A DNA stretch of 64,000 nt from Pachysolen tannophilus NRRL Y-2460 (Eukaryota): NCBI GenBank assembly GCA_001661245.1, contig KV454015.1, positions 248,001-312,000 on the forward strand, given 5' to 3'. Positions 4,245 through 28,364 of this stretch are shown one piece after another. Every line of letters starts with the position of its first letter. Position 1 is the first letter of the stretch. A program made the position numbers and the translations under genes. Below the pieces are notes generated by a model, which ran no database searches, was not told the DNA's origin, and was given only the letters and a program-made list of their open reading frames with translations.

Positions 4245-4866
4245 ACAACTTGGCCAGCCGTGGCCAAGTTGGTGCCAATGTCGGGCGGGAGAAAACCAAA
4301 GTGAGCCGCCCGCCTGCTATTCACCTCATCGACCGCCCCGTTGTCCACCGCCCGCAGCCACCACCCACCTCCGGACGCCGCTGTTCCCTTTGTCCCCTCG
4401 TCCCTTTGTTCCAACGGTCCCAGTTGCTACCGCTTCCGCCGCCATTGCCGCCCTTGTCTTTTACCCCTTTTTTTCTCCTGGTCGTGTATCCTGGCCCTCA
4501 AAAGACGGACTCTTAACCTTTTGAGCTCCCTCACTTTAAACTACAACAACTACAATTAATACAATTACTTGTAACTAGAACTTCACAAAAAGAAACCTTG
4601 ATTGAAATTGGGTTTCTTTATCTTTTACAGTAAATTCTTTATTCCAAGAGTAAGAATAACATAGTTAATAACTCCTAATAAATACAAGTGAAAGAACACC
4701 ATTTTTTCTCTTCTTCCAGGGTAATTTTCAGCACGTCACCCATATAGTATCCCATATAGAGTTTCTCATATTAACCTGTAGTTAGCAGGTAATCGCTCGT
4801 AGTCGCGCGCTGTGTAAATGGCAGCACGGCGGCGTTTAGTGCCTGGACTTTAGACACGGTTTCAGT
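4245..4866. other. GC-rich, hairpin-dense island; candidate structured ncRNA of unassigned family
   Basis: Abrupt rise in GC within an AT-rich intergenic region. Perfect 11-bp stem at 4246-4271, with further stems at 4497-4525, 4589-4619 and 4773-4790. No credible ORF. Confidence 0.4.
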
Positions 4867-5037
4867 AAAAATAACAAAAGAAAGAAAGAAAGAAAAAAAA
4901 AAAGAAAGAGGAAATAAACAATACAATAAGTTAAATATATATATATTAATATATTAATATATTAATATATTTAAACAGCGGATATTGTTATTAAATCAAT
5001 TAATTGCTGAAAAGTAGTATTAAGAATCTATTGAATT

Positions 5038-5880
5038 ATGGTATGTTATTTTATGAATTTGAAGATTTATTGAATATAATTTAGCGTTTGTTTATGGAAT
5101 GTTGGCTTTTACCTTTATTTTTTTTTTTTTTTTTGCTTTTTAGCCTTTGCCTCTCTCTGCCTTTGCTTTTTTTTGCTTTTTGCTTTCTTTCTTTTTATTT
5201 TTCTTTTTGGCTTTTTTTTGGCTTTGGCGGTTGAAGATTTTTCTCCTTTGGAATGTTATGTGGAAGATCGTGATACCAGGCTGATGTTTTATGTTTTAAA
5301 CGGATTTATAAAAGGTTAAAGTATTGGGTGTCCCTGAGTTATATTCAATTTTTTTTTTTTTTGATTTCAAAAGAAAAAATAAAAAGAAAAATTTATTAAA
5401 TGTTTTTGTTACTAACTAAAAATGGTTAAACAGTCTGAAAAATTATCTGAAGAACAAATCACAGAATTTAAAGAAGCTTTTTCTTTATTCGATAAGGATA
5501 ATGATGGTAAGATCACAACAAAAGAATTGGGTACTGTTATGAGATCTTTGGGACAGAATCCTTCTGAAAGTGAATTGAATGATATGATTAATGAAGTTGA
5601 TGTTAATAATGATGGTAGTATAGATTTCCCTGAATTCTTAACAATGATGGCAAGAAAAATGAAAGATTCGGATTCAGAAGCAGAAATTATTGAAGCATTT
5701 AAAGTCTTTGATACCAATGGTGATGGAAAAATTAGTGCTGCTGAATTAAGACATGTTTTAACTTCAATTGGAGAGAAATTGTCCGATTATGAAGTTGATG
5801 AAATGATTAAAGAAGCAGATACAAATAATGATGGAGAAATAGATATCAAGGAATTTACACAATTGTTGGTAGGTAAATAG
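5038..5880 (+). CDS. CMD1: Calmodulin. Exon 1 = ATG 5038-5040, intron 5041-5433, exon 2 5434-5880.
   Basis: Four EF hands ([18 protein letters not shown]...). GTATGT donor follows the ATG directly, TACTAAC branch at 5410-5416, CAG acceptor at 5431-5433. The spliced start reads MSEKLSEEQ. Confidence 0.97.
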
Positions 5881-6304
5881 AATAGAGTTTTAAACTTGAG
5901 AAGGTCCCACCCATTATGGGATCGTATATGATTATGTATACAATTTTTGTTTTTTTGGTTTTTTTTTTTTTTCTTTTTTCTTGTCTTTTCTTTTCTTTTG
6001 TTTTGTTTTGTTTTGTTTTTTTTCTTTTTGATTTGATTACTTTCTCTTATTCTTTCTTGTTTTATGTTACTTCATATGCTTCGGATTTTGAGTATACACT
6101 TGATTTAAAGTGTTATAGTGATTTCACGCGTATATTTTAATTTTAAGTGGAAGACAAAAAGAAAAAAGAAAAAAGAAAAAAAAAAAAAAAAACTCAATAT
6201 ATATATAAAGTTCACAATAATCATTTTAGTTAAAGAAAAGTACAAATATAATCTTTTCATTTCAATGTAAAAAAAAAAAAAAAAAAATAAGACGGTGGAA
6301 AAGT

Positions 6305-9300
6305 TTATGGCCAACTTGGGTTTAATTCCCCAACCCATTCGGCCTCCATTGGTCTAAACATTTTAATTTCACCTTCAGTTAATTTTTTCAAATCTAAAGC
6401 ATCTCTAACAACTTTTTTCATTCCACCAGTATTTTGATGAATAACCATCAATTCACCATCACCTCTATTTTCTAAAACAATTGAAGTATGATCAGGTGCT
6501 CCAAGCATCATAGTTTTATTTGGATATTTGAAAATACATGATTTGAATTGTAAAATATCACCTCTTCTAATTTCATCGCTTACCAGTGATTTTGTAAAAA
6601 TTGGAGATGATGACTCACCATTACCAGTCTCGATTTCATACAAATATCCATGGTTGAGCCCGTCACTGATAAAAGCATGCTTACCACAAGCTTTTTCTAA
6701 TGCATCATGGGCCAATGTCCAGCACTCGCCATTTCCAACTTTAGTACCTTCCTTCACTTCACACCAACTAGCAACATGATTACCAAATTTTTCATGTGAT
6801 TCCAAAAGTTGCCTTTGAGAAGTTACTTGTGGCGGTGGTACAAATTTCTTATCAACATCGTACGAGTTACGAGGCTCTGATGATATCTTTGACCATTTTA
6901 TCCTCAATTTTAAAATTGACAAATCTCTTAATCTAAAAACAAAAATTCTAAAATTTTCATTCCCTGAATAGCCAAACGATGTTGCAAAATTTAAACCTCT
7001 TAAAGATTGCGGTAAGTCGGACAATGACTGATCGGACCACCAACCGGATGATAATTGCAAATCTAAATCCGGTTCTTGCCACAGTAATCTACTGTTACGA
7101 GATGGCGGAGCAACAGGTGGACCTGAAGATTTTTGACTTAATAATCTCGGTTTAACCGGTGGCAGGACAGGTTTTTTATGTTCTGGAGTCATCGAGGTCT
7201 TCAGTTGCGGCAGAGGAATGGCAACTCGGGGTCTTGGTTTAACAGGTGGAGGTGTATCATCACTATCACTTCTACCAGAGTGAGCAGATATTGGGGGTTC
7301 TCGGTTCACTGGTAAAGGTTGTGGATGCTTCATTTGAACTTCTTCATGCTGATACAAGTTGTCACGACGTTTTGGTATTGGCGGCAGTTCTTCATTATCA
7401 TCATTTGACAGAACCGACGAAGAATCATTATTCTTACCAGACAGCGCTGATGATGGTAATATTTGTACAGGAGTTCTCAATCTAACCTGATGACCGTAAC
7501 TTTCTTCTTCTTTAAGTTGTTGGCGTCTCTGAGGCAAATGAGGAGCTTCTTCTTCGTCATCTTTCTGTATATTTCCGTTATACCTCGAAGGCATTGAAGG
7601 TAATTTAACTCCACCAAAAGGTTTGCCTTGATTATATTCATTGTCTTCTCCGGTATTTTCTTTTGAAGTTTGTCTCATAAAAGAAGGCTTTTTAGCTACC
7701 GTAGGCTTTGGTTTAATTATTGGTGGTTTCTTAGGTTTGGAGATATCTTTTTGATTATTTCTTGGCTCTTGTAAGGCTATTTTTTCTGTTACCTGATTTA
7801 AATTTTTTTTAAAAGAAAGCCTGTCCATATTCTCTTCCTCATCTTTTTTAAAATCATCATTACCAGATTCAAGATTCTCAGTTGTACTATCTGATTTTTC
7901 AAATCGATCCAAATTTCGGTTTGTCTTTCTCAATCCTCCGCGTAAAGATCCAATAAAATTTTCATTTTCATTGTCTTGCTGAGAAGACAATTTGTAGTCT
8001 TGAGATCTTTGGCTAATAGATCTCTCTTTCAAAAAATGATGTTCATTGAGCGGAGCAGGAACAGAAGAGCTCAGTTCAGCGTGATCCGTATGATCTACGA
8101 TTTGCTCTTTAGATTCAATTTCATTATCATTACCAACAGATAAATTTTTCGGTTTCTTTGCTGGTTTTGGAGGTGGACCTTTTTTATTCAAAGATAAGTT
8201 CTCAGTTTTTTTAACTATATTGGAAAATGGTTCATTATCTTCTTTAGAATAACTTGACTGCATGGAAATTTTTGCTGATCTTCTATCATCATTAGCAATA
8301 TTTTTAGTTTCTGGTCTATAAGGCCTTGGAGGTGGGGGTAAAGATGAAATATCATTCGATTTTTCAACTTTATTATTCAGTTGTACGTTTTCCAGTCTAG
8401 CAGCATTGATAGGAGTAGCATTTGATGATGTCCTTGTTGGTAACGGTGGAAGTGGGCTAGCCAGCGCGTTAGAGAGATTTGAAGTTGACAGACCATTTAC
8501 CTGGCCTCTAAAAGGCTTTGGAGGGGGTGTAAAACTATTAATTTGAGATTCAGCACTAATTGGAGTTGAAACTTTTTCCGTAGATACAGAATGAGAAACA
8601 TCATGCTCTGGAGCAGTTTGCGGAGTCAGTACACCAGTAGATGAGCTTGTTGACTTCTTGGAAAGCTGTTCTGATGCACCTCTTCCTCTATGGATTGGTG
8701 GCGGAGCAAAAGACTTTGGATCAGGAAGAGGTTTAAGTGGTTTCTGCTCTTCTTCATCTTCTTCACCAGGCAATTTTGGCATTCTAACACCAAAGTTACC
8801 TACTGGAGATGGTACATCAAGTGCCGGAGGTGACGAAATATGGGGTTGCCCATTTACTTGTTGCGTTGGCTGTTGAACTTGATAATAGGGGTTATTAAAC
8901 GATAATTCATTTTGTTGTTCGGGTTGTCCGGGTTGTGGTTGCTGATACTGATTCGAATTCTCAAAAGAATCTCTTGGAGGTGGAACAGGAAGCAGCGTTC
9001 TAGCATACTGCTGTTGCTGTTGTTGTTGTGGTGGTGGTGGTGGTAGCTGTTGAGTTTGTGGTAATGGCAGAGATTGTGGCTGCTGCATAGGCATAGGCAT
9101 TGGCGTTGGCGGCTGAGGTTGCTGAGGCTGCTGAGGCTGCTGCGGTTGTTGATAAGCAGGAGAAGCAGGTGCTTGATATTGCATCGGCAGCGGCTGTTGT
9201 TGATAACCTTGTGGCAGTAATGGCTGCTGCTCATAACCTTGCTGCTGAGGCTGATAGTACTGCTGCTGCTGCTGAGTCTGTTGCAGTGGAATTGGCTGAA

Positions 9301-9883
9301 TTTGAGCTGGCTGTTGATATCCCTGCTGTGGAACTGACTGCTGTGAAGCAAACTGCTGTGGTGGAGCAGGCTGTTGTTGGTTATAGTACATCTGTTGTGG
9401 TTGTTGTTGTGGTTGAGGTTGTTGATATCCTGGCTGATACGAGGATTGTAGTTGCTGCTGCGAGTACCCAACCATCGGCTGCTGCTGTTGTAGTGGTTGT
9501 TGTACTTGTGCTGGTGGAAGATATCCCCCCGCTGATCCAGCTGTACCATTTCTTGCTGGTGGAGCAGGAAATTGCGATGGATTTACTGTGGAATACGAAT
9601 TTGCAGTTCTAGAAGATGAACCACCAGAACGACGCTCTTCTTCATCGGAATAATCATCATATTCACTATCCGAGCGGCTATCACGCTTGCTACCACTACG
9701 ACGGCTATGCCCATCCCTTCTATGTCTTCCATGTGCACTTTTCGACTTATCTCTATTATCATAAGCTTTCTTACCAGCATGATATCCAGCAACAGTGACT
9801 TTTTTGGTTCCAATAGCGGCACCTTTAAGCGTAGCTTTCCCAGCAGCTTTAAATGTACCTTTATTTTCTTCCCAAAACGGCAT
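6305..9883 (-). CDS. AIM3: Aim3-family actin-patch protein, Pro/Gln-rich, with a C-terminal Bbc1-like domain
   Basis: N-terminus MPFWEENK...GTKKV..AGY and the DPKSFAPPP motif resemble Aim3. The C-terminal domain contains VGNGECWTLA and GAPDHTSIV. Syntenic with CMD1 and IML3. Confidence 0.75.
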   Translation of the reverse strand: MPFWEENKGTFKAAGKATLKGAAIGTKKVTVAGYHAGKKAYDNRDKSKSAHGRHRRDGHSRRSGSKRDSRSDSEYDDYSDEEERRSGGSSSRTANSYSTVNPSQFPAPPARNGTAGSAGGYLPPAQVQQPLQQQQPMVGYSQQQLQSSYQPGYQQPQPQQQPQQMYYNQQQPAPPQQFASQQSVPQQGYQQPAQIQPIPLQQTQQQQQYYQPQQQGYEQQPLLPQGYQQQPLPMQYQAPASPAYQQPQQPQQPQQPQPPTPMPMPMQQPQSLPLPQTQQLPPPPPQQQQQQQYARTLLPVPPPRDSFENSNQYQQPQPGQPEQQNELSFNNPYYQVQQPTQQVNGQPHISSPPALDVPSPVGNFGVRMPKLPGEEDEEEQKPLKPLPDPKSFAPPPIHRGRGASEQLSKKSTSSSTGVLTPQTAPEHDVSHSVSTEKVSTPISAESQINSFTPPPKPFRGQVNGLSTSNLSNALASPLPPLPTRTSSNATPINAARLENVQLNNKVEKSNDISSLPPPPRPYRPETKNIANDDRRSAKISMQSSYSKEDNEPFSNIVKKTENLSLNKKGPPPKPAKKPKNLSVGNDNEIESKEQIVDHTDHAELSSSVPAPLNEHHFLKERSISQRSQDYKLSSQQDNENENFIGSLRGGLRKTNRNLDRFEKSDSTTENLESGNDDFKKDEEENMDRLSFKKNLNQVTEKIALQEPRNNQKDISKPKKPPIIKPKPTVAKKPSFMRQTSKENTGEDNEYNQGKPFGGVKLPSMPSRYNGNIQKDDEEEAPHLPQRRQQLKEEESYGHQVRLRTPVQILPSSALSGKNNDSSSVLSNDDNEELPPIPKRRDNLYQHEEVQMKHPQPLPVNREPPISAHSGRSDSDDTPPPVKPRPRVAIPLPQLKTSMTPEHKKPVLPPVKPRLLSQKSSGPPVAPPSRNSRLLWQEPDLDLQLSSGWWSDQSLSDLPQSLRGLNFATSFGYSGNENFRIFVFRLRDLSILKLRIKWSKISSEPRNSYDVDKKFVPPPQVTSQRQLLESHEKFGNHVASWCEVKEGTKVGNGECWTLAHDALEKACGKHAFISDGLNHGYLYEIETGNGESSSPIFTKSLVSDEIRRGDILQFKSCIFKYPNKTMMLGAPDHTSIVLENRGDGELMVIHQNTGGMKKVVRDALDLKKLTEGEIKMFRPMEAEWVGELNPSWP

Positions 9884-10370
9884 TTACCAATGACTATCTC
9901 TAATAGAAATCTCCTCTATTGATTAATTTTCAATTCGTAATTTAACTAATAATTTAATCAACTATATATATGATACGAGAAGATGGGTTGGCATTTTAAA
10001 ATTCAAATTTAAGAAAATCACTAAATGCGCTCTAAATGCGTTCAAAATGCGCATTAAATTACTAAGAGCGGTACGCTTTCTAAAAGTTTACTAATACACA
10101 GGTGTGGTACGCTTTTAAAATTAGACATGTGCACTTTATATACGCAAATGTTTTAATGCGTACCGCACTTTTTATGCGCTTTTTAATTGCACTCTCCTCG
10201 CTTTTTTCTTTACAGCGTTGCGCATTGTGCGCGCGTAAGTGCGTGTCTTTCTCTCTTATACATATATATAATCACTGTTTACATATATAATTTTTGTAAA
10301 TACAAATACCAATATATATATATATATATATATATATGATTCAGTTGAATTAAAGGTATGAAAAGTTAGA

Positions 10371-11234
10371 ATGCCTGAATTATTGCTAAATAACTCTTTT
10401 AAGGTGTACAAGTTATTGTCTCCATCATTATCAGTGTCTTTGTCGTCGGTTCTTTCCTCGTCATCATGTATTACGGATTTAAAAAGAATTATAACTAATT
10501 CATTATACGCGGATTATCAATCAAAGAATGGGTTTTTTTATTATAGTGATTCATTATTTGATATGTTTAATGGCAATAGTGATGATCGTAGAGGCAAAAG
10601 CTTGGAATTGAAGGAAATGGATGAGATTGTGGAAATTAAGTTGAAAAAAGAGGTGAAAACAGTACAAGAAAAGAATTATGAATTAAATTATTTAATTATT
10701 AAAAGTAAAAATAAAGATCAAATACCTTTAAAATCTCAAATTTTTATATTTTTCACTGAAATGTCTTCATATTCATCTACAATATTATTGGTAAAAGCAT
10801 TACCAAAATTTAATAGTTTAATGTTAAATTTTTTTATCAATGATAAAGGTTTAATTATTAAAAATTTAAAAATTTCTTCAATTTTTTTAAAAAATTGTTT
10901 AAATATTAATTTTGATAAATTAATAAAATATAATAGTGATTTAGAAATTAGTTTTAATAATTTAAATACTATTAATAATTCTTTACTGAATATTTCAATT
11001 AATTTACTTTCAAAAAATTTGAAAACTTTTAACAAACAAGAAGAAATTATTTTTACAGATGATTTATTTAATACTTTAAATAAATTAACATCAATAGATT
11101 TTAAACAATTAGATATTACCAAAATAAGGTGTAATTTATTTTATTTGATGAGTGATGGAAAATTAAAATTTTTCAGTCATGATACAGAAGATGATGATAA
11201 ATTAATTTGGAGAATTTTAACAAATCTTGGATGA
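10371..11234 (+). CDS. IML3: Probable inner-kinetochore CENP-L/Iml3 homologue
   Basis: 287-aa ORF. Its N-terminal Y.LSP-like and C-terminal (IDF..L.ITKI.C.LF...SDGKLKF) patterns resemble CENP-L. It sits next to AIM3 as in S. cerevisiae. Confidence 0.55.
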   Translation: MPELLLNNSFKVYKLLSPSLSVSLSSVLSSSSCITDLKRIITNSLYADYQSKNGFFYYSDSLFDMFNGNSDDRRGKSLELKEMDEIVEIKLKKEVKTVQEKNYELNYLIIKSKNKDQIPLKSQIFIFFTEMSSYSSTILLVKALPKFNSLMLNFFINDKGLIIKNLKISSIFLKNCLNINFDKLIKYNSDLEISFNNLNTINNSLLNISINLLSKNLKTFNKQEEIIFTDDLFNTLNKLTSIDFKQLDITKIRCNLFYLMSDGKLKFFSHDTEDDDKLIWRILTNLG

Positions 11235-11507
11235 AAATAATATATAAATATATATATATATATGTGTGTATAGAGCTAATGTAAAAATATCATGAAATGT
11301 TGGTAAATATTATATTTTGAAAATATTAAAGAACCCCAAAAGAAAAAAAAAAATAAAAAAAATAAAGAAACCTTTCCGTAAACCTCAAATACCAAATATA
11401 TACAGACATGGCAGAAACTATTACTTCTGGTTGATGCAAGTAGAAGAAGATGTATTGGCGACAGTATTTATAATGATCTATGATCTATGATCTGTGATTA
11501 TAGCAGT

Positions 11508-12293
11508 TTAAGCAGAACTACCATCTTTGTTTAATTTATCAAAATCAAAATCAAAGCTTGCACCACATCCACAACTACTTGTTGTGTATGGACTTTCTGT
11601 AACTTTAAACTGTGAACCTATTAATTCATGAACATAATCAACTTTACTATCTCTTAAAATTTCTAAACTCATTTTATCTATTATAACTCTTGCATTGCCA
11701 TCCCTAACAAACATAGAATCCTCGTTATCATCTTTCAGATCCTTACCAGCATTAAATTCTTTTTCATAATCATCTACAAGTTTTAAATTATATTGAAATC
11801 CATGACATCCACCACTTTCAACTTGTATACGAAGAGCTAATTTAGGATTATTGTCCTTTTCGATAATTTCTTTCAATTTCAGTGATGCATCTTCAGTTAT
11901 ATATAAGAAAAGAGGTAACCCATTATTATCACTAATCAACTGATTAACACATCTAGTCGATAATAAAGAAGCTCCCGATGATGATTTATCCTTTTCTAAA
12001 GGAAATGTAGATTTTTTCGGTAATTTTTCAGCCAGTTTCACAGATGTAGATTCCAAATCTTTTTTTTGCTGTTGTTCTTGTTGCAGAAGTTGTGGCTCTG
12101 CCGATTGTGATGATGATGATGGTGTTATCACTGTAGAATTAAATCTAACTATCAACTCAGATGGAATCCGTAAAGAAATAAACGATTGGGAATACAATAA
12201 CGATGACAACGGGAATGGTGATAACGATAGCACCCGCTTCATATTATACCCATGGAAAGGCCTGATCTGTCTATGAATTAATTTCAATATCAT
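11508..12293 (-). CDS. ISA2: Mitochondrial A-type Fe-S assembly protein (start ATG at 12293 or 12242)
   Basis: Motifs LRIQVESGGCHGFQY, ELIGSQF and SSCGCGASF; basic/Ser-rich presequence. Confidence 0.9.
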   Translation of the reverse strand: MILKLIHRQIRPFHGYNMKRVLSLSPFPLSSLLYSQSFISLRIPSELIVRFNSTVITPSSSSQSAEPQLLQQEQQQKKDLESTSVKLAEKLPKKSTFPLEKDKSSSGASLLSTRCVNQLISDNNGLPLFLYITEDASLKLKEIIEKDNNPKLALRIQVESGGCHGFQYNLKLVDDYEKEFNAGKDLKDDNEDSMFVRDGNARVIIDKMSLEILRDSKVDYVHELIGSQFKVTESPYTTSSCGCGASFDFDFDKLNKDGSSA

Positions 12294-12593
12294 TATTCTT
12301 AATTCTTTAATTTCAAATACCTTCGAAACAATATTCAATATTCAATATCGGAATATAACTTGCTTTTTTTTTTTAATTCTATTTATATTTAAAGTAATGG
12401 TTTAATCATTACTAATGTTCTATCTCTGTATGGACAGTTAAAATACAAACCAAAAAAGAAAAAAAAGAAAAAAAAAAATTTGAAAATGAACTGAATTGAT
12501 ATATAATACACGACCGAATAATAGCAGCTTTAATAAGAAGAAGAATAGTTCCATGCTAATTAGATGCTATACAAAGATGTTATAAGAGATAGA

Positions 12594-14102
12594 TCAGTTT
12601 CTGTTGACCAAGTAGGTGAACAAGTAGCTGAAAAGACTTCCAAATGCCAAACCTATGCTGAGGAAAACAGTTGTAAATCCGCCTGCGGCTTTTTGTTCAT
12701 TTTCACCATCGACAAATCTGCTAACGTTCATGAAACTTGAAGAGCATAATTGACCATTTGTTAACCCGAATAAGAATTGTAATAGGATGTAAATGACATC
12801 TGACTGTATAATTGCGTGACTTTTGTTGTTTTTGAAGTTACACATGAAAAAGAAAGGTATGAATATCAATCTCAAGATTGATAATATGATTAATTTTCTT
12901 GGAGATGCTATTATGAAAAAACTCCATGCACAAAGTAATCTTGCTAGTAAATCTCCAACACTCCATATTAAGAATGCTAAAGGAGTGAAAATGTTTTTAT
13001 TGATATTGTTTACTGATTCCACTGATGATGCAAAGACTGGGAAAATTAAAGTTATGGAAAAAGTGAAAAAAATAGTTAGTGCAATTAACTTCAATTTCGA
13101 CCACAAGTATCTAAAAGGTACATGTTGTTGTTGTTGTTCTAAGTTCTCTCCAGGTTCTAATTGTGGTTGTAGTTGTAGTTGTGCTTGGTCTTGGTCTTGT
13201 GCTTGTGCTTGATTGGTTACAGTTTGGTTTAACATCTTTGCGGCTTCATGTTCTTCACTATTATCCCACATTGAAATTGGCTCAAAAGAAGTTTCTTCTT
13301 CTTCTTTGATTTCATCTAAATAATCAACTAACCATATTAAAAATAATGATAATGCACTTACAAAACATGATGTTAAAAAATAAATCATAGCACCATAATT
13401 TTTATCAACATTTTCCTTTTCCTTATCTTTAATTGGAGTCTTATTAGCAGCCAAAACTGAAATAATCATTGTGAACGATGGTAATACTCCTGAAAAAGCT
13501 TGTCCAACCATAACACCATTAGCGAAAATTGGTCCCAATATATTTACTAATGCCATTACTCCATTTTGAGAAATAGCAGTTGCTGAACTATTTAAAAAGA
13601 CAGAAATCATAACAAATATAAAATAAATAATATAATTCACTTGTGTGAATATAACACATGACATCCCCAATATTGCAAATACAATTATAATTAAAATTTG
13701 TCCCATTTTTACTCTATATTTATAATCAACTCCATGTTGTCTTTGAGATAATATATAACTACAACATGTTGAAGTTAATGTAGATATAGTCATCATAGTT
13801 GAAGAATAATTATTCGACAACTTGGAATTAGGTACAAACCTTTGATCAAAATATTCAGAAGCTGCTAAATAACAATTCCATGGCCACAATAAAGCAACTC
13901 CTAATACTAAAAATGTAAAATATCTTAATTCTGTTAATGTAACTTTAACTTTCCTTACTTGAAATATCACCTTCTCACTCCTGCCACTACCATTAATATT
14001 AGTATCACTATTACTTATTGACTGATTTTCTTCAAAATCATTTGTATCCAGATCCAGATCCAGATCTATCATATGAATATCCACTTGATCACTTCTAGAC
14101 AT
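12594..14102 (-). CDS. FUN26: Equilibrative nucleoside transporter
   Basis: Motifs LG.ALLWPWN, GQAFSGVLPS, TL.FP and FGLTNG; about 11 hydrophobic segments. Confidence 0.88.
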   Translation of the reverse strand: MSRSDQVDIHMIDLDLDLDTNDFEENQSISNSDTNINGSGRSEKVIFQVRKVKVTLTELRYFTFLVLGVALLWPWNCYLAASEYFDQRFVPNSKLSNNYSSTMMTISTLTSTCCSYILSQRQHGVDYKYRVKMGQILIIIVFAILGMSCVIFTQVNYIIYFIFVMISVFLNSSATAISQNGVMALVNILGPIFANGVMVGQAFSGVLPSFTMIISVLAANKTPIKDKEKENVDKNYGAMIYFLTSCFVSALSLFLIWLVDYLDEIKEEEETSFEPISMWDNSEEHEAAKMLNQTVTNQAQAQDQDQAQLQLQPQLEPGENLEQQQQHVPFRYLWSKLKLIALTIFFTFSITLIFPVFASSVESVNNINKNIFTPLAFLIWSVGDLLARLLCAWSFFIIASPRKLIILSILRLIFIPFFFMCNFKNNKSHAIIQSDVIYILLQFLFGLTNGQLCSSSFMNVSRFVDGENEQKAAGGFTTVFLSIGLAFGSLFSYLFTYLVNRN

Positions 14103-14429
14103 CTTATACCTCTAACATATATTTATATTTATATATATATAAATTTATTAATTATATTTGAATTTAGCGCTATATAACTTTTTTAAACCTTTGATTGTCG
14201 TGGCCTGGCGCTTATCGCTCTTTACTCAAAAAAGAAAAAAGAAAAAAAAAATTTTTTTTTTTTTCTCATAATAAAAACTAAAAGTCGTGTTATTTTCTAC
14301 AAATATATACGAATATGGTAATAAATACCCGGTCTCCCCAAAAGGTAAGAAAAAAAACAGTTTTTTTTATGTCTGCGAGTGTATGTACCCCTTTTTTTAG
14401 GGGTGTGTTAGAGTTGAGGTTTAAGTAAT

Positions 14430-15508
14430 TTACCAACCTCTAGTTGATAATTTTTCAAAATTTTTCAAGCTATCAACAGTGATACCTTGCATACTTTCAC
14501 CTAGGTCTTTTGAATACTCTAAGATTTTCTTTGGGTCATTGTAGTGGGTTACCGAATTGACTATTGCTCTTGCAATTTTTTCTGGGTTTGCACTTTTAAA
14601 AATACCAGAACCAACAAATACACCATCACAACCCATTTGCATACAAAGAGCTGCATCTGCTGGAGTTGCAATTCCACCTGCAGCAAAGTTTACTACTGGT
14701 AATTTCCCCTTATTATCGATAAGATCTTGTAATAATTTAAAAGGAACTCTTAATTCATTTGCATATTCTTGAATTTCACTTGGTGTTTTCAAAGATAAAG
14801 CTATTTCAATATCTTGTTTAATAATATTGATATGATTAACAGCTTCAGAGATATCACCAGTTCCAGCTTCACCTTTTGTTCTAATCATTGCAGCACCTTC
14901 ATTTATACGTCTTAAAGCTTCTCCTAAATTTCTCAGACCGCAAACAAATGGAATTTTGAAATCATTTTTCGCAATATGATTGATCTTATCTGCAGGAGTT
15001 AAAACTTCAGATTCATCAATATAATCAACTTCTAAAGCTTCTAATATTTCAGCCTCAACAAAATGACCAATTCTACATTTTGCCATAACTGGAATTGAAA
15101 CACTGAAAAAATTATTAATTATATTAGTAATTGAAACTTTTTTTTTCAGTTATCACAATTAAATCGCATACATATCATGCATACAAATTGAATATATTTA
15201 ATTTTATTTACTTACGCATTCATAATATCTTCAATAAATTTTGGATCAGACATTCTAGATACACCACCGTATTTCCTAATATCAGAAGGAACTCTTTCTA
15301 AAGCCATAACAGCACATGCACCTGCTCTTTCAGCGATTAATGCTTGCTCGACATTTACAACACTAAAAACATAATTAGTAAATCTGAAATATATATATAT
15401 ATATATATATATTGGGGTGTTTTAAAATACTTACTCCATTATAACACCACCTTTAAGCATTTGGGCTAAACCAGCTTTTAATTGAAAAGTATTTTGAACT
15501 TCAGACAT
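14430..15508 (-). CDS. SNZ1: Pyridoxal 5'-phosphate synthase subunit Pdx1/Snz. Exons 15508-15435, 15362-15216 and 15102-14430 (297 aa).
   Basis: The spliced product reads [28 protein letters not shown]...[13 protein letters not shown]...[14 protein letters not shown]. Both introns have GTAAGT donors, TACTAAT branch points and YAG acceptors. Confidence 0.95.
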
Positions 15509-15658
15509 TTTTTTTTTTGAAAAATTATAAAAATTACTACTACTACTATAATTCAAAAAATTTAAAAGAATAATTTTCTTCAATAACACACTTTTTCAAA
15601 GCTATTTATATTAAATTTCAAATCAATTTCTTGAATATTGCGGGAATTGAAAAAAATT

Positions 15659-15665
15659 TGAGTCA
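15659..15665. promoter_or_regulatory. Gcn4/AP-1 site TGAGTCA in the SNZ1-SNO1 divergent promoter
   Basis: Perfect consensus match; SNZ1 and SNO1 are known Gcn4 targets in S. cerevisiae. Confidence 0.6.
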
Positions 15666-16046
15666 TCATTGGTATTAGCCGCCAAAAGAATTGAATAAAA
15701 AAAACAAAAAACTCGTTGAATCCATTTATCTTTGCTTATAATTGATTAAAACATACCATAATGCTTCCGGTTTGACAAGTCAAATATCGGATTTAAAAGT
15801 GCAACTTGCCAAACTAAATTCATCTCGCCCAGTCTGTCAAATCCGATATATACTTTTCTATCTTTCATATCCAATTTTTCAAAATTGCGGAATTTGACCA
15901 TATCATATCAAACATTGAATATTTATAGGTCAATATATATATATATATATATTATATATCTGTTTATGTGTTTATGTGTTCATCTGAGTAGTATTTCTTT
16001 TCTGTGATTTTTGTTTTGTACCAGATTTGTTTTTTTTTTTGTAATA

Positions 16047-16808
16047 ATGAAACAAAAAATTAAATTGGGGGTTTTAGCGATACAAGGTGCTTTTAAAGAA
16101 CACATTCACCATTTTGAAAAAATTATTGAGAAAGAACAATATCAAGATTATGAGATTGAAGTAGTTGAAATTAGTCAACTGGACCAATTAATCTCATGTA
16201 ATGCTTTAGTTATTCCTGGAGGTGAAAGTACTTCCATATCGATAACCGCTGAGAGAATAGGTTTATTAGAACCATTACGAGATTTTATTAGAAAAGGTAA
16301 ACCAGTCTGGGGTACTTGTGCTGGATTAATTTTACTTGCTTCAAAGATAACTAATGCTTCTCTGGGACAAAAATTAATTGGTGGATTAGATATTGAAGTT
16401 CAAAGAAATGCTTTTGGAAGACAATTGAATTCTTTTGCAATTCCCAAGGTGGATTTTAGTTCTTTTATTCCAGGTTGTAAAGATTTCCAACACGCTGTTT
16501 TCATTAGAGCACCTGTTGTTACAGCTATAAATATCTTTAATAATACTACAGATTCTTTTATTAAAAATAATGATAATAATGATAAATATTTTAATAATCA
16601 ATCAGTAGTTTATGCACCATCATATGCATACAATTTTGAAGAAAAAAAACCTCAAGTGGAAATATTATCAAGACTTGATGAATCTCATAAAAATTTAATT
16701 GTCGCTGTAAGACAAGGTCAAATCTTAGGAACAGCTTTTCACCCAGAATTATCAAAAGATTCTAGGTTTCATCAATGGTTCTTGGAAGAATTTGTATTGA
16801 AATTGTAG
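16047..16808 (+). CDS. SNO1: PLP synthase glutaminase subunit Pdx2/Sno
   Basis: Motifs GVLAIQGAF.EH, IPGGEST, WGTCAGLI, RNAFGRQ, FIRAP and AFHPEL; divergent from SNZ1. Confidence 0.95.
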   Translation: MKQKIKLGVLAIQGAFKEHIHHFEKIIEKEQYQDYEIEVVEISQLDQLISCNALVIPGGESTSISITAERIGLLEPLRDFIRKGKPVWGTCAGLILLASKITNASLGQKLIGGLDIEVQRNAFGRQLNSFAIPKVDFSSFIPGCKDFQHAVFIRAPVVTAINIFNNTTDSFIKNNDNNDKYFNNQSVVYAPSYAYNFEEKKPQVEILSRLDESHKNLIVAVRQGQILGTAFHPELSKDSRFHQWFLEEFVLKL

Positions 16809-16927
16809 TGTAAACATTTATTTTTTTATATATATATTTATTTATAAATTTTAAATAGATAAAAGATAAGTTAATTTTATTATATTAAAATTTGTAATTT
16901 TTTTTTTTTTTGGAGGAGGTTTAAAAG

Positions 16928-18030
16928 ATGTTGAAGGCTAGTGTATTTAATGGCTTTAATGGATCTAACGAATCCAATGGAATGAATGGATCGAATGGAT
17001 CCAACAAAGGTTTGAATAATTCCATAGTTGTAGTAGACTCCGAATTAAGTTTTTGTAATTCGTATCAGTTGGCAATCAAGAATTATTTAAATAAGAATTT
17101 TCATCATTCATGGAACTTGATCCTTCCTTTAATTAATGAGGTATTACAAGGAAGAAAACTTATAGGCAATAGGGATCTAGCTATTGGATGTTTTAAATTA
17201 TATTTTAGTTTGGTTGATTTATTTTTGAAAAAACCAGAATTGTTTAATCTACCTCGTTCTGAAAGGGTTATAATTGAAAAAGAATTTAAAAATGGGTTAT
17301 TGGTAAATCAATTATTAGTAATTTCAGGAAATGATTATGGGAAAATTGATAGTGAATTATTTTTCATTGCTTCATTGATTGAATTTGGAAATGAATTTGA
17401 AATAACAAAATTGGAATTACAACTTGAAAATTATTTAAGATCAAATGATTACTTAACAAGTGGTGGATTTGAAAATGATAATAAGAATTTAAGAAAAATC
17501 TTGTCTCTTTATTTATTCAAAGTATTACCGAAAAATCATAATTTTGAAAAATCACAAGAATTGATTGAGAAAATATACATTAGAGATGACATTAAAATAT
17601 CACAGAAACTTGCAAAATTGAAACAAGTGAAGACAAATTTACAAAAAATAGAAGAAGCCAACAAGATGGAAAAGGTGAAAAAGGAAGCCGAAAGGCAAAG
17701 ACTTGCCAAGAAAAAAAAAGAAGAGGAAGAAGAAGAAAAAGAAAAAGAAAAGAAAACAAGACAATTAACAACAATCAAAGAAGTACAACATCAACAACCA
17801 CAACGACAACCACAGAAATCGCTGCCCGCACATAGCAAAGAGACTACAACACTTTTTTTGCTCAAAAATCTAAGGAAAATATTACTCACTTTTAAAACCA
17901 AAAAAATTCTTCTTTATCTCTTTATGTTGATAAGCCTATTACTTTCTTTAAGAAAATACAAGAAAACTACAGGGAAAATACTGCAAATGGTAACAAACAC
18001 GCTAAGTATGGCTTTCAAAGTCTCTTATTT

Positions 18031-18034
<4 letters not shown>
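16928..18034 (+). CDS. Tail-anchored peroxin, Pex15/Pex26-like
   Basis: Helical body, charged linker, single C-terminal TM and basic tail ending MAFKVSYL, which resembles fungal Pex26 ends. It neighbours TPD3/NTG, matching the yeast PEX15 neighbourhood. Confidence 0.6.

Positions 18035-18069
<35 letters not shown>
18030..18069. repeat. (ATAG)n microsatellite overlapping the stop codon
   Basis: About 10 tandem ATAG units, seen directly. Confidence 0.9.
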
Positions 18070-18203
18070 CCTATATACATAAACGTGTTGTTCTAATATC
18101 ATCTTGTAGCCATCACGCTTTCGCCATCAAATCATGGGCAATCGAACCATGATCCATCTCCTCCTGGTGATTATCTACACCAATAACCATAATAAGTAAT
18201 ATA

Positions 18204-18248
18204 TTTCCGTTTTAGGAAACTGTTTAAGCAATTCTCCGAATTAGGAAA
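18204..18248. promoter_or_regulatory. Pair of Mcm1/ECB-like sites
   Basis: TTTCCGTTTTAGGAAA (18204-18219) and TCTCCGAATTAGGAAA (18233-18248). Confidence 0.45.
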
Positions 18249-18805
18249 CTCTGTGTTTTTTGTTTTCTAATAGCGGTTTGAAATAGAAGTTATGGAAGAC
18301 AAAAGGTTTAAATATATTAGACATTTATTAAAATATATAACCATTGGTTCATTTGAATTTATAAAGTGAATATATTCAAAATATTGATTGAATTGATCCA
18401 TAATTCTATTGGTTTGTTGATTCTTTATTGATCTATTTGGTTGAAAGTATTTTATTTCGGCGAAAAACTGAATAAAAAAAAAAACTAAATAAATTGATTT
18501 GAAGAATTGGGAAACAAACACATTGAAAAAATTTGAAGGACGATTTGTTGATTATAAAGTTTTTTAATTGATTTTTTTCCTTTTTCCATTTGGTATTATT
18601 CTCTTTTCTTTTAATCAGAGAGAGCGCTATAGATAAATTGAAAATATATCTTAAATTTAAAGGGAATCAAATTTTCAATTTGTTGTAATCTTTTTCAAAG
18701 TATTTTCACAATAGCGATATACAATACAAATAGAAATACGAAAAAAATATTTAAAAAAAAATTAAATTAAATTAAATTAAATTAAAATAAAATAAAATAA
18801 AATAA

Positions 18806-18836
<31 letters not shown>

Positions 18837-18911
18837 GTTAAACCCCCATTTATTCATTTATTCTTCTCATTAGTATATTAGCATATTATAAAAATTTGAA
18901 AAGAGAAAAAA

Positions 18912-20762
18912 ATGACTACACCAGAGACGAATTCAGATGAGCTTTTGCCGATTGCTTTATTGATGGACGAATTGAAACATGATGATGTTGGTAGTAGAGT
19001 TCAAGCAATGAAGAGATTAGATACCATTGCTTTGGCACTTAATCCGGAAAGAACAAGAAGTGAGCTTTTACCATTTTTACAAGATGTTGTTCAAGATGAT
19101 GAGGATGAAGTTATAACAGTTATTGCTGAAGAATTGCTGAAATTTGTTCAATACGTTGGAGGACCAGCTTATGCTACTGAATTAATACCTGTATTGGAAA
19201 ACATAACGTACAATGAAGAACCAATAGTTAGAGATAAGGCAATCCACTCATTAAATGTAATTAGTAAATCGTTTGATGATGATCAGATTAATTCGGATTT
19301 TTTACCTTTAATTGAAAGGTTATCTGAACATAAATGGTTTTCTCATAGAGTAGCTTCAACTGGGTTATTTGAAAGTGTTATATTACGGGTTAATTCAGAT
19401 TTACGTAAAAAATTATTAGGGTTATATTTAAAGTTAGTTGAAGATGATACTCCAATGGTCAGAAGAGCTGCTGCAAAACATTTACCAAAAATTATTGATT
19501 TATTAACTGAAAAATTTAAAGAAAATAATATTGAAGAATTTAATTATGATATTATATCTACAATGTTCCAATCGTTATTAAATGATAACCAGGATTCAGT
19601 CAAGTTTTTATCTGTGGATGTCTTGATATCAATTTTAAAACATTTCAAATTAAATGGTGATGTTTCTCATGAACAAGAATTGTTTAATAGTGTCTTAATA
19701 TTAATTCATGATGAAAGTTGGAGAGTTCGTTATATGGTTGCTGATAGATTCGAGCAATTAGTTTCAAGTTTTAATGACCCTCCATCTGATATTATAAGGT
19801 TAATCCCTGAAATCACTTCTTTAATGAAGGATAATGAAGGTGAAGTTAGAAAAGCAATCTCAAAACAATTACCTGGATTCTGTAAGTTAATCAAAAATTC
19901 AGATGTTTTGTTAAATGATGTTATCCCATGTGTTGAAAGTTTGAGTAATGATGAAAATGAGGTTGTTAGAAGTGCTTTAGCAAGTGAAATTACCGGATTA
20001 GCACCAATTTTAGGTAAAGATTTAACAATTGAATATTTATTACCAACTTTTTTAAACATGTTAAAAGATGAATTTCCAGAAGTTAGATTAAATATTATTT
20101 CAAACTTACAAATAGTTAATCAAGTTATTGGCATACAGTTATTATCTAAATCTTTGCTTCCTGCAATAACAGAATTAGCACAAGACAAACAATGGAGAGT
20201 AAGATTGGCAATCATAGAGCAAATTCCATTATTAGCAGAACAATTGGGAGTTTCATTCTTTGATGAAGAATTGGGTGAATTGTGCATGTCTTGGTTATGG
20301 GATCCAGTCTATTCTATTAGAAATGCTGCTGTAGTTAATTTGGAAAAATTGACTGTGATTTTTGGATCCGGTTGGGCAAAACTGGAATTAATTGATAGAA
20401 TCTTGAGTGACAAGATAGATATTTCAAATTTCATAGTCAGAATCACCTCAGTTTTTGCCTTGACAAATTTAGTACCTGTTGTTGATGAAAATTTGGTGAT
20501 CAACGATATATTACCATTTATCTTGAATTTGAGTGAAGATAAAGTTCCAAACATAAGGTTTAACGTCGCAAAATCATTACAAGAAATTGTAAAAGCGTTA
20601 GCTAAAAATCAAAATAGTGCTAATAAAGATGAACACTTGGATATTATTAAATCAAAAATTATTCCAACTTTAGAGATTTTTAGTAAAGACGAGGATGTTG
20701 ATGTAAGATTTTATGCTGAAAAGAGCATTGAAAGCGTCAAGAAAATTGTAGAAAGCTTTTAA
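18912..20762 (+). CDS. TPD3: PP2A scaffold (A) subunit, HEAT repeats
   Basis: Motifs PIALLMDELKHDD, DDTPMVRRAAA, SWRVRYMVA, WRVRLAIIE and VPNIRFNVAK. Confidence 0.97.
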   Translation: MTTPETNSDELLPIALLMDELKHDDVGSRVQAMKRLDTIALALNPERTRSELLPFLQDVVQDDEDEVITVIAEELLKFVQYVGGPAYATELIPVLENITYNEEPIVRDKAIHSLNVISKSFDDDQINSDFLPLIERLSEHKWFSHRVASTGLFESVILRVNSDLRKKLLGLYLKLVEDDTPMVRRAAAKHLPKIIDLLTEKFKENNIEEFNYDIISTMFQSLLNDNQDSVKFLSVDVLISILKHFKLNGDVSHEQELFNSVLILIHDESWRVRYMVADRFEQLVSSFNDPPSDIIRLIPEITSLMKDNEGEVRKAISKQLPGFCKLIKNSDVLLNDVIPCVESLSNDENEVVRSALASEITGLAPILGKDLTIEYLLPTFLNMLKDEFPEVRLNIISNLQIVNQVIGIQLLSKSLLPAITELAQDKQWRVRLAIIEQIPLLAEQLGVSFFDEELGELCMSWLWDPVYSIRNAAVVNLEKLTVIFGSGWAKLELIDRILSDKIDISNFIVRITSVFALTNLVPVVDENLVINDILPFILNLSEDKVPNIRFNVAKSLQEIVKALAKNQNSANKDEHLDIIKSKIIPTLEIFSKDEDVDVRFYAEKSIESVKKIVESF

Positions 20763-20789
20763 GAAAATGCAAATCATAAATATTTTTTA

Positions 20790-20821
<32 letters not shown>

Positions 20822-21172
20822 TATTTATATTAACTTTTTTTCTTTTCAATTTTTTATTTTCTTTGATTTTAGTTTTTAGTTTAGTGAATGTTTGCTTTTG
20901 TCTTTTGTTATCAAATCATTTTAAACTCTATATCAAGTTATTAGATCAATGGAATTTTTTACTTAACCTTTTTAATTATGGTCCATATTGTTTTTTAACC
21001 TCTAGTTTTTTCATTTTATTTTATCAGACCCCATTTTTCATTAATAATAATGATAAAACGAATTGTTATAGTTATAAAAAAAAAGTAACTTTATATAATT
21101 TGTAAATCTATCGCAAGAAAGACAATCTTCAACCCTACAAAAAAAAAAAAAAAAAAGATATATATATATATA

Positions 21173-22177
21173 TTAATCCAATTGCCTGGTGGCTTTTACA
21201 GCAACAGGTATCATTCCGCCAGCGGCAATTGTGAATCTTGGATGTCCCAATACCAACAATAGTGATCTTGTAGTACCTGCATGACTTGTAACGTTAACGA
21301 AAACGTCTTGTTCAGTTTTTGTTTTAGCTAGATCCAGATCCCATTCTTTTTCAAATAAAAATTGTAAAAATTTGTTTAATCTAACACCTTGCTCCAATAC
21401 ACTTTCTCTCCAATTACTTTTATATAATACATCTTCTTCTTCAAAATTATCTTCAAATATAAAGCCATATTTAGCAAATCTTTCTTCAATCACTCTACGA
21501 GGAGATCTTTTATCGCACAAATGCACTCCAATAGTTTCCCTAATATCTTCTTTAATTAATGGATGTGCCTTTATTGGGGATTCAGTTAATGCAATATCCA
21601 ACCATGTGTTTACCAACGTTGACAGAGATCTAGTAAAAGGAGACGAATAAAATGCAGAAGGAATTGGTGCACCTTTACTAATCTGTTCTTTCCATGCTCT
21701 ATTATTTTCCTTTGCTTGGTTTATTCCCAACTCAGTTAAAAAAGGATCTGGTCCCCAAATAATTTCTCCATCACCTTCAATTTTAGACCAATGATCATCC
21801 CAATCTTTGGAACCATATTTAGTAACACCAAAATTATGATAACCTTGACCATGTCTTGCTAAAAATAATATTTTATAACATTCATTCTCTTTAGCATTCA
21901 GATTCAATTCTGAAATTTTTAATTTTAAATCTGACCATGTTTTTGGAATTTTCCCAAAATCATTTTCAATATAATTAAATTCAAGTTCATCAACTAAAGA
22001 AGGATCCGACTGTTGGAAAAACCCTTGAACAACTTCAAACTTCCACGGCCTTATATACTTCCCATCCAGGTTTTTCTCTGATGAAAGATCCAATAAATGT
22101 TTTTTAAATTGCAGATCATTCAGTTCACCATCGTGGGCATCGATATAATCTACTGTAATCGGTTTAATTAAACTCAT
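21173..22177 (-). CDS. PMU1: Histidine phosphatase/phosphoglycerate-mutase-like protein (Pmu1 family)
   Basis: Motifs LFLARHGQGYHN, LTELG, SSPF.R, RETIGVH.CDKR and SHAG; ATG at 22177. Confidence 0.75.
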   Translation of the reverse strand: MSLIKPITVDYIDAHDGELNDLQFKKHLLDLSSEKNLDGKYIRPWKFEVVQGFFQQSDPSLVDELEFNYIENDFGKIPKTWSDLKLKISELNLNAKENECYKILFLARHGQGYHNFGVTKYGSKDWDDHWSKIEGDGEIIWGPDPFLTELGINQAKENNRAWKEQISKGAPIPSAFYSSPFTRSLSTLVNTWLDIALTESPIKAHPLIKEDIRETIGVHLCDKRSPRRVIEERFAKYGFIFEDNFEEEDVLYKSNWRESVLEQGVRLNKFLQFLFEKEWDLDLAKTKTEQDVFVNVTSHAGTTRSLLLVLGHPRFTIAAGGMIPVAVKATRQLD

Positions 22178-22579
22178 AATCACGCAAAAACGAAATAATT
22201 TTTTAATTTTTTGCTTTTTTTCTTTTGAGGAGGACGAAAATACAACAAGAACAATCAAATGATTTCACTTCAGTTTCCTCTTTTATCTACTTGAAATTGC
22301 ACCAGAGATATATCTAATAATTGTTTAATACTCAATATTAATATATTACCATCACCAGTTGTTCCTGGTTATTTTTATTAATAATTTTTTATATACAAAA
22401 AAGGACAAATAAAATTAATAAAATTTTTTTTTGAGTTTCCTTTTTGAGACAATTACCCTTTTTGGTAATTTCGTTGTTCACCAGCTAATAAAAGATGGAA
22501 AGAAACGACAACGACGACGACAACGGCGACGACAACGGCAACGACAACGGCAACGACCAAAAGATGTTTTCTTAAGATT

Positions 22580-23713
22580 TTACAACTCTTCTATATCACC
22601 AATGTTCATTATTCCAGACAAGTCACCTCTTGTCTTTTTGGGGTTCTTATTTTCAGTAGAAATTTTTTTATTCAAAAGTTTCCTATCAACGTTTGGGCAA
22701 AGGTTACCAAATCTTGGTAAAGTACACAAATCACATCTTCTTCCTCTTGGAAGACAGATACTTTGACCAAATCCAACTAAGATTGGGTTAAACTCTGTCC
22801 ATAAGTCGCGAGGAAGCCATTTTTCTAATTCTAATCTAGTTGTTTCCGGGGTTGGATTTTTCAATTTAGGTACCCATCCCCACATATTTGCCAATCTAAA
22901 TACATGAACATCTACACCTATCCCTGTGGTGATATTCCATGCGGATTGTAATAACAAGTACCCCATCTTTGGCCCCACACCTGGGAAAGCCATTATTTCT
23001 TGTATTGTCTTTGGTATCTCGTCCAGATATTTTTCATGTAAAATTTCTGTTGTTTGTTTAATATATTTTGCCTTTCTTGTATGGAAACCAACTTTAAAAA
23101 TAAGTTTATCTAATTCTATTTCTGATATTTCTCTAATAGCTTCTATACATAAACCTTTTTCAAAACCTTTTGCAAGAAAAGTTTGATGAAGAAGATTCAT
23201 TACTTCATAATTAATTTCATCTTTAGTTTGAGATGATAACATCAAAGAAACTAATAATTGATACCTGAAAACTGGACCTTCTTTTAAAGAAGATATTTTA
23301 GTTGGTATAGAAGCACAACCCATTGTATCAACTGGTGCAATTATCTTTGATCTCATAAATTTCACTTGATCATAAATTTGTTGGAAATTTTTAGGTGGAG
23401 GAAGAGAAGGAACAGATGTAATAGATTCATCATCTATATTCTCTTCAATTTTAATATTTTCATGTTTTATTGTTTTTCTTTTTTTCTTTAATGGTACAAT
23501 ATCATTAGAAAGATTAATTTCAGTTTCTAATGGTTCTTTCTTAATATCAATATCGGACTCATTTTTTATCTTTATATTTGAACATGCATCTGATTCAGAT
23601 AAATTCTTGGTATTATTATTTTTATTAATAAAATATTTACTTTTCCCAGGTTTTTCATCTTCTGTTAGAATTGATCTAGCAACTAATCTTGATGATCTTC
23701 GAAATTCTTTCAT
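22580..23713 (-). CDS. NTG1: Endonuclease III-like DNA glycosylase/AP lyase
   Basis: Motifs LMLSSQTKD, HhH PGVGPKM and GIGVDVHV; C-terminal four-Cys 4Fe-4S-type motif CLPRGRRCDLC...LC. Confidence 0.9.
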   Translation of the reverse strand: MKEFRRSSRLVARSILTEDEKPGKSKYFINKNNNTKNLSESDACSNIKIKNESDIDIKKEPLETEINLSNDIVPLKKKRKTIKHENIKIEENIDDESITSVPSLPPPKNFQQIYDQVKFMRSKIIAPVDTMGCASIPTKISSLKEGPVFRYQLLVSLMLSSQTKDEINYEVMNLLHQTFLAKGFEKGLCIEAIREISEIELDKLIFKVGFHTRKAKYIKQTTEILHEKYLDEIPKTIQEIMAFPGVGPKMGYLLLQSAWNITTGIGVDVHVFRLANMWGWVPKLKNPTPETTRLELEKWLPRDLWTEFNPILVGFGQSICLPRGRRCDLCTLPRFGNLCPNVDRKLLNKKISTENKNPKKTRGDLSGIMNIGDIEEL

Positions 23714-25175
23714 TTACGGTTTCTGCAAGAGACCCGTTAAAGTTAAGATAAAAATGAATTAACAGTATTTAAAAAAAGATAACTAATTACAAAAAATTCA
23801 TTTTTTTTTTTGATTTTTTTACCTCAAAAAGAAAAAGATCTTGAAAAATTTTTTTTTGTCTATTCACTTATCAATTAACAGATATAATTTAAGATAAACG
23901 GTAAGCACATGAGAAATAAGAATACAATATACAAGTACTCACGTACTGACGTACTGATGTATTCTTAAAGATTGATCTTAAAGCAGAAAGCTATAAAAAA
24001 AAAAAAACAGAACCATTAATAGATAAGACCAAATATATTGATTGTATGATATAGTTTAGGAACCAGACATATTCTATTCGATGTGTTTAATGTGCATATT
24101 AAAAGGCTTTATTGTAAAAAAAAATCTTTTGGTTCGATTTTTGTAGGCCGTAGGCCGTACGATAAGAAGGGAAAGCTTAGAATAATTCCACAAGATACTT
24201 AGGCGGCTGGGCGGCTGGGCGGCTGGAAATGTGGGTTGCAAAGCAGTAAAGTACCAATGGAAGAGTGAAGATGAATAACTAAAAGATATTTTTAGAGAAA
24301 TTGGGCTACATGAAACTAGTGAACCAACTAACCAGTGCGGGAACCAACCTGTTCTGTTGGCCAGCCGGATAGAAAGCTATTGAACCAGATATAAATCAGA
24401 TTATTAATATAAAATTCCAGTAAGTAGGTATCGTTTCACCGTTGAAACTTTCAATCTATGCAGCAGCATGATTACGGGTCACGTTATTATGTTTTTATGG
24501 TCAGGGGAAACAGAAATGGTTAAAATTTCCTTTTTCGTGTTGATTCGCAGTGACCTTTTATGCTGGAAGTTTCAGAAATTATGCAAGAGCAAAAAGGGCA
24601 AGAACTTAAAAAAAAGTAACAAAGAGCAGCAGCCCATAGTTAAATTCTTCTTTTTTTTTTTTTTTTTTTTTTTTTTTTGGAAAAAGGCAGGCAGGAAAAG
24701 GTTTATTAAGCTTTAAGTTCCATGCCCTTTCCTTTTTTTTTTTGAGTTCTTGCCTTTCTTTGTGTCCCATCTCCTCTCAGTTGTCTCATGCATGTATGGT
24801 ACTTTTAAAAGGGCTTTTGATTCGGCATTCATTACTAAGGGACAGCAAATAACGTTGCTCCGTGCTACTGAATGGCCTCAACTTAACTATTTTTTTAATT
24901 GTATTTGCTGTCTTGATCGAATAACAGAAACGGCGGTATTCATACTGGCAAAACAAATCAATGCCTTGTAAGTTTTAAATCTTTTTTTCTTTTTAAACTT
25001 TTCTTGTAATGTCTCCTGCCTGCTACCACCGTACAGTCAATAGGAAATCATGAAATCAACAAACTACTCGTGAATTTTCGTGATTTATGTGTTCTTTTTT
25101 TTTCTCCCCTATTCCGCCAGTCACAAGACGATATTTTATGCACAAAATATTTATATTGTTAAACCTCTGACTGAC

Positions 25176-25182
25176 TGAGTCA
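25176..25182. promoter_or_regulatory. Gcn4/AP-1 site TGAGTCA upstream of the peptide transporter
   Basis: Consensus match in the long upstream region. Confidence 0.4.

Positions 25183-28332: not shown

Positions 28333-28364
<32 letters not shown>

Follow-up and report, generated by a model that had tools for sequence, protein, structure and literature searches.

We find that the codon CUG is read as alanine throughout the 64,000-nucleotide stretch of DNA analyzed here (the window), which very probably comes from the nucleus of a budding yeast in the CUG-Ala clade (order Alaninales) that uses NCBI genetic code table 26. The initial annotation had preferred alanine to serine or leucine at CUG and had pointed to the known clade of Pachysolen, Nakazawaea, and Peterozyma. 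Profile likelihoods, resampling of codon columns, the PdxS column at the flagged codon, and the deposited proteins of the same DNA all bear out the reading, and the clade agrees with what passages of two published studies describe (PMC4937558 and PMC5951914).

The window has a G+C content of 30.2% and carries genes typical of budding yeasts (Hos1, Alg1, Bbc1/Aim3, Isa, Fun26, Snz, Sno, Tpd3, Ntg1, and Ptr2, together with Pif1, Mcm5, Eci1, a Put7-like gene, Guf1, Ldb19, Ccr4, Vac7, Abd1, and others). The closest named homologues of its proteins come from Pichiales and Serinales yeasts at 45 to 53% identity, with other matches reaching 57 to 60%. Taken with the low G+C content and the table 26 annotation found in NCBI, UniRef, and MetaClust, these relatives make Pachysolen tannophilus the likely species. 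CTG is a rare codon here. Among 33 ATG-started open reading frames (ORFs) of at least 150 amino acids, a set in which at least one overlapping member (8854-9549) is probably spurious, it makes up 139 of 16,463 codons, and 139 of 1,766 codons of the leucine box, compared with 896 for TTA and 433 for TTG. The column checks described below extend to 11 proteins; of the ~134 CTG codons that lie in credible ORFs, they take in about 32. The features that they concern are collected in Table 1.

The flagged codon, which appears as CAG on the forward strand at 14934-14936 and hence as CTG on the reverse strand, lies in the SNZ1/PdxS gene. With the standard code, ORF 14430-15086(-) is translated as ...PFVCG[L][10 protein letters not shown]..., i.e. 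FVCG[CTG][10 protein letters not shown], and it matches Pfam SOR_SNZ at 5.9e-61. We aligned 80 prokaryotic PdxS loci one by one to the query, in which CTG had been masked as X. The flanks of the codon proved invariant (P-F-V-C-G before, L-G-E-A-L-R-R after), and the column itself contained Ala in 49, Cys in 28, Ser in 2, Gly in 1, and Leu in 0 loci, in line with the family consensus of CGA or CGC that the initial annotation had given. Five entries of solved homologues, representing four distinct proteins, give a similar picture: Arabidopsis PDX1.3 has Cys, and the other three (yeast SNZ1, Thermus PdxS, and 9dvf) have Ala. None of the eight conserved Leu columns of PdxS is encoded by CTG.

We also observe that the gene, at 14430-15510 on the reverse strand, apparently consists of three exons. 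The 71 N-terminal residues that are absent from the main SNZ1 ORF are encoded in short ORF pieces whose approximate bounds are 15431-15510 and 15212-15360.

Table 1. Positions in the window of the features discussed, with the residues that homologues carry at each CTG codon
Feature	Positions	Strand	Observation
Scope of the code	1..64000		CTG = Ala throughout, NCBI table 26
Hos1 CTG, C-terminal part of deacetylase domain	2447..2449	+	Ala in human HDAC2, the sole distinct homologue shown
Alg1 codon 74 CTG	3917..3919	-	Near-invariant Ala: Ala 114, Ser 3, Val 2 of 119; Ala in deposited P0002
SNZ1/PdxS last exon	14430..15086	-	Pfam SOR_SNZ; alignment begins at residue 72 of S. cerevisiae SNZ1
Flagged CTG	14934..14936	-	Codon 51 of ORF 14430-15086(-), last exon of SNZ1/PdxS gene
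Tpd3 (PP2A scaffold) codon 76 CTG	19137..19139	+	Gly 96, Ala 16, Ser 8, Pro 6, Leu 2 of 139; Gly in human PP2A-A
Tpd3 codon 491 CTG	20382..20384	+	Variable polar: Glu 33, Thr 19, Ser 18, Gln 17, Lys 16, Ala 9 of 139
YLR278C-like codon 501 CTG	42914..42916	+	Pro 85, Ala 1 of 86; counter-example to simple Ala conservation
Put7-like codon 285 CTG	47642..47644	-	Met 20/20 (multiple alignment), 14/14 (pairwise); hydrophobic segment; counter-example
Put7/CCDC90-like codon 178 CTG	47963..47965	-	Invariant Ala: 19/19 (multiple alignment), 16/16 (without near-duplicates); Ala in deposited P0122

For other proteins, columns were counted from query-anchored pairwise alignments with CTG masked, using 119 homologues of Alg1, 20 of the Put7/CCDC90-like protein (16 without near-duplicates), 100 of the YLR278C-like zinc-cluster factor (86 without near-duplicates), and 150 representatives of Tpd3 at 50% identity. 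Pairwise alignments were preferred to a MAFFT multiple alignment, in which Tpd3 codon 76 was misplaced and only 12 of the 150 homologues remained in the column. CTG codons occupy a near-invariant alanine column in Alg1 and an invariant one in the Put7-like protein, the latter as the initial annotation had proposed. At these two columns and the PdxS column, leucine is found in 0/119, 0/16, and 0/80 homologues and serine in 3/119, 0/16, and 2/80, respectively, which weighs against either residue as the meaning of CUG.

Seven of the eight CTG examples given in the initial annotation could be compared with homologues. The glycine that it had expected opposite the first Tpd3 codon (19137) dominates that column, and for Hos1 (2447), where it had expected alanine or a small residue, human HDAC2 has Ala. 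The second Tpd3 codon (20382) was said to stand at an alanine or small-residue position. This holds for human PP2A-A, which has Ala at codon 491, but not for the column, which is variable and polar. The same claim for Eci1 (47223) draws only slight backing from a Cys at codon 171 in S. cerevisiae Eci1, the sole distinct homologue shown, and for Guf1 (50738) the column, codon 454, is uninformative for the code, with Tyr, Glu, and Glu in three bacterial LepA proteins. For the C-terminal part of Ldb19 (CTG at 55022), a search among solved structures found no homologue.

Most remaining CTG columns are variable and polar in the pairwise alignments. Against solved structures, Guf1 454, Eci1 204 and 226, Abd1 319, and Sno 45 and 106 fall at variable or gapped positions, and Abd1 codon 246 faces Pro, Pro, Pro, and Ala. 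One candidate was dropped: YLR278C-like codon 765 appeared to be a conserved alanine column in the multiple alignment (58/76), whereas the pairwise alignments gave a scattered column (26/86).

The initial annotation had proposed a Codetta-type tabulation of CTG columns, and across four families such a tabulation returns alanine as the best residue. Profiles were built from homologues of Alg1, the Put7-like protein, the YLR278C-like factor, and Tpd3 with the query left out; the query was then aligned with CTG masked as X, and log emission probabilities were summed per codon in the manner of Codetta. Default hmmbuild weighting (19 CTG columns) favors Ala over Ser by 2.9 and over Leu by 16.0 ln units. 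These profiles are flat and were judged noisy because 11 of the 59 other codons were decoded as non-standard. More weight was therefore given to the profiles built with --eclust (18 columns; Ala over Ser by 7.1 and over Leu by 27.4) and with --enone (15 columns; 10.9 and 31.2), for which only 2/59 (ACG, n=2, and GCC, n=4) and 1/59 (ACG, n=3) other codons, respectively, came out as non-standard. We regard the CTG columns as supporting alanine over serine, and far more so over leucine, to the extent that sequence comparison can tell.

To calibrate these values, 18 columns at a time were drawn at random from each codon class, 10,000 times over. Between the 1st and the 99th percentile, ln(Ala/Ser) ran from -41 to -7 for columns of serine codons, and ln(Ala/Leu) ran from -94 to -45 for columns of leucine codons; in neither case did any of the 10,000 sets reach the value of the CTG columns (+7.1 and +27.4). 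With respect to columns of GCN codons, the CTG value lies within the range but low, at the 2.6th percentile for ln(Ala/Ser) and the 0.06th percentile for ln(Ala/Leu). CTG columns are thus Ala-like, yet less conserved than ordinary alanine positions.

The reverse test starts from conserved columns. Leu makes up at least 80% of the residues in 102 columns of the four families, and these are encoded by TTA, TTG, CTT, CTC, or CTA in 93 cases and by non-Leu codons in 9, never by CTG. Given that CTG accounts for 20 of the 277 Leu-box codons in the four genes, its absence from the 93 has a binomial probability of 9e-4. CTG encodes two of the 33 columns conserved for Ala and none of the 35 conserved for Ser.

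Taken against these results, a standard code in which CUG still means Leu, and in which CTG is merely a rare codon kept away from important positions in an AT-rich genome, has a negligible probability. It would account for the scarcity of CTG at 30% G+C and for Alg1 codon 264, the sole column with a Leu plurality (42/117 in the multiple and 19/101 in the pairwise alignment), and the invariant Met column at Put7-like codon 285 is at least hydrophobic. It places Leu, however, 16 to 31 ln units below Ala, and the resampled Leu codons, the three near-invariant alanine columns, and the conserved Leu columns all speak against it, so that, on the evidence of alignments, the standard-code reading is already refuted. 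Serine at CUG, the reading used by the Candida/Debaryomyces (table 12) and Saccharomycopsis/Ascoidea clades, is a very improbable alternative. Serine is the second-best residue in each profile run, many of the closest named homologues belong to CUG-Ser1 species, and serine is the majority residue in two CTG columns, Put7-like codon 163 (Ser 12, Ala 3 of 16) and YLR278C-like codon 578 (Ser 49, Ala 14 of 86). Its deficit of 7.1 to 10.9 ln units in the sharper profiles, its scarcity at the near-invariant alanine columns, the failure of every Ser-codon resample to match CTG, and the absence of CTG from conserved Ser columns argue for alanine instead.

The proteins deposited for the same DNA give a direct view of the code in use. 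The top match in the Alg1, Put7-like, and YLR278C-like searches is the window's own deposited protein, and each differs from the standard-code translation solely at CTG codons, where it has Ala in all cases (3/3, 5/5, and 10/10). Exact look-ups of table 26 translations matched Tpd3, Mcm5, Abd1, and a BAR-PH protein in one set (4/8) and Sno and Ptr2 in another (2/10), with the matched sequences recorded in nr as well as in NCBI and UniRef. Exact look-up of Tpd3 translated with table 1 or with table 12, in contrast, gave no match in the public collection, a further point against leucine and serine. Overall, Ala stands at 38 of 38 CTG codons in nine deposited proteins spread from 2732 to 63779, and the public annotation of this DNA already applies alanine at CTG. 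The remaining 12 of the 18 look-ups of table 26 translations had no exact match, which is uninformative for the code and probably reflects ORFs that differ from the deposited gene models. Snz contains introns, HOS1 is disrupted in the window, and the starts of other ORFs may differ from those models.

Not every column fits a picture of alanine alone. CTG also appears at columns that are invariant for Met or for Pro, or dominated by Gln/Arg/Lys (the last at YLR278C-like codon 677), in addition to the single Leu plurality. Such columns, together with the lower Ala signal of CTG relative to GCN columns, raise the question of whether CUG is read uniformly. That partial or context-dependent decoding as another residue is hidden here seems to us highly unlikely. 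Alternatively, the weak columns may represent young CTG codons at tolerant sites. At 47642-47644, 42914-42916, and 43442-43444, the column is dominated by Met, Pro, or Gln, and the codons ATG, CCG, and CAG for these residues each differ from CTG by one nucleotide. This fits a recent origin of CTG at sites that tolerate Ala and suggests that alanine at such columns may have arisen by single-step mutation after the reassignment.

A related possibility is an ambiguous CUG that is read mostly as Ala but in a substantial fraction of cases as Leu or some other residue, comparable to the Ser/Leu mixture of Ascoidea asiatica. The less Ala-like character of CTG columns relative to GCN columns would be in keeping with it, and dual decoding is known in a related clade, as described in passages of PMC6041473. 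Young CTG codons at variable positions, though, are expected to weaken the Ala signal in the same way, and mass spectrometry of P. tannophilus, in the passages of PMC4937558 that deal with it, found Ala at 97.2% of 907 fully supported CUG positions, with the remainder no more common than for AUG. Alignments are blind, in either direction, to a small fraction of some other residue at CUG. We consider substantial ambiguity extremely unlikely and retain alanine as the reading of CUG.

Proposals for how alanine comes to be inserted are taken from the literature. Passages of Muhlhausen et al. 2016 (PMC4937558) describe the tRNA(CAG) of P. tannophilus as an alanine-type tRNA that has A73 and a G3:U70 pair but no extended variable loop, and they explain the change by such a tRNA with a mutated anticodon that is charged by the anticodon-blind alanyl-tRNA synthetase. 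The decoder in the organism of the window would likewise be an alanine-type tRNA with the anticodon CAG, G3:U70 and A73, and without a long variable arm. Because alanyl-tRNA synthetase ignores the anticodon, a tRNA(CAG) of this type would be expected to receive Ala. No tRNA genes were found in the 64,000-nt window.

The change of CUG to alanine was already known, having been published in 2016 and given its own NCBI table, and our results add nothing new about the code itself. Their value is practical: all CTG codons of the window (139 in the counted ORFs) need to be translated as Ala, as otherwise the proteins will carry wrong residues. This affects positions within catalytic domains, such as SNZ1 codon 51, as well as runs that would otherwise be rendered as poly-Leu instead of poly-Ala.

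Two such runs stand out. In Ccr4, eight consecutive CTG codons (57955..57978, reverse strand) directly follow a poly-Gln (CAA/CAG) run, and in an HLH protein five CTG codons lie within a run of six Leu-box codons (31705-31722), again directly after poly-Gln (CAA/CAG). With table 26 both regions encode a poly-Gln tract that runs into poly-Ala. The CAG and CTG repeats, being complementary, could pair in DNA or RNA.

The YLR278C-like factor (41414-43972, forward strand) contains only the fungal transcription factor domain, both in our ORF and in deposited P0143. Most of its homologues additionally have the Zn2Cys6 domain PF00172, and the gene model may miss an upstream exon or use a different start.

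We further observe that the deacetylase domain of HOS1 (912-2665) is split across opposite strands in the window. The N-terminal part is encoded on the reverse strand (ORF 912-2024, Pfam profile positions 2-223) and the C-terminal part on the forward strand from 2234, where it aligns with HDAC2 residues 243-319. Contigs derived from the reads of three public runs (two studies, with two of the runs sharing sample and study) agree in all three cases: 1070 is linked to 2233 and 1071 to 2234, each time across opposite strands and without any letters shared at the joint. None of the contig pieces from these runs crosses either point in the orientation of the window. When the 1,163 bases of 1071-2233 are reverse-complemented, a single continuous ORF of 461 codons is restored, in frame, with the junction after codon 318. 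No significant inverted repeat was found flanking the inversion. From the contig joins and the restored ORF, the deposited assembly is most likely locally mis-oriented over 1071-2233, HOS1 being intact in the reads.

With regard to known CUG codes, the window resembles CUG-Ser1 yeasts (table 12; Candida, Debaryomyces, Scheffersomyces) in that the same codon is reassigned in a neighboring budding-yeast lineage and that CTG is rare and located chiefly at non-conserved positions. It differs in that CUG is there read as Ser via a Ser-type tRNA(CAG), whereas serine is disfavored here and the deposited Tpd3 is not a table 12 translation. CUG-Ser2 yeasts and Ascoidea asiatica represent a further CUG reassignment in budding yeasts, the third and an independent one, as outlined in passages of PMC5951914 and PMC6041473. 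In those yeasts the same passages describe Ser, or a Ser/Leu mix from two competing tRNAs, unlike the window, which gives no sign of either. The table 26 system itself, labeled "Pachysolen tannophilus nuclei: CTG=A", belongs to a clade of Pachysolen, Nakazawaea, and Peterozyma in passages of Krassowski et al. 2018 (PMC5951914), and in NCBI taxonomy Pachysolen falls within the order Alaninales. The sequence of the window showed no difference from this system. Pachysolen CUG codons lie mostly at conserved alanine positions, according to passages of PMC4937558. Like this system, the window has CTG at alanine or small-residue columns and lacks it at conserved Leu and Ser columns; it is AT-rich, CTG is rare, and table 26 reproduces the matched deposited proteins exactly.
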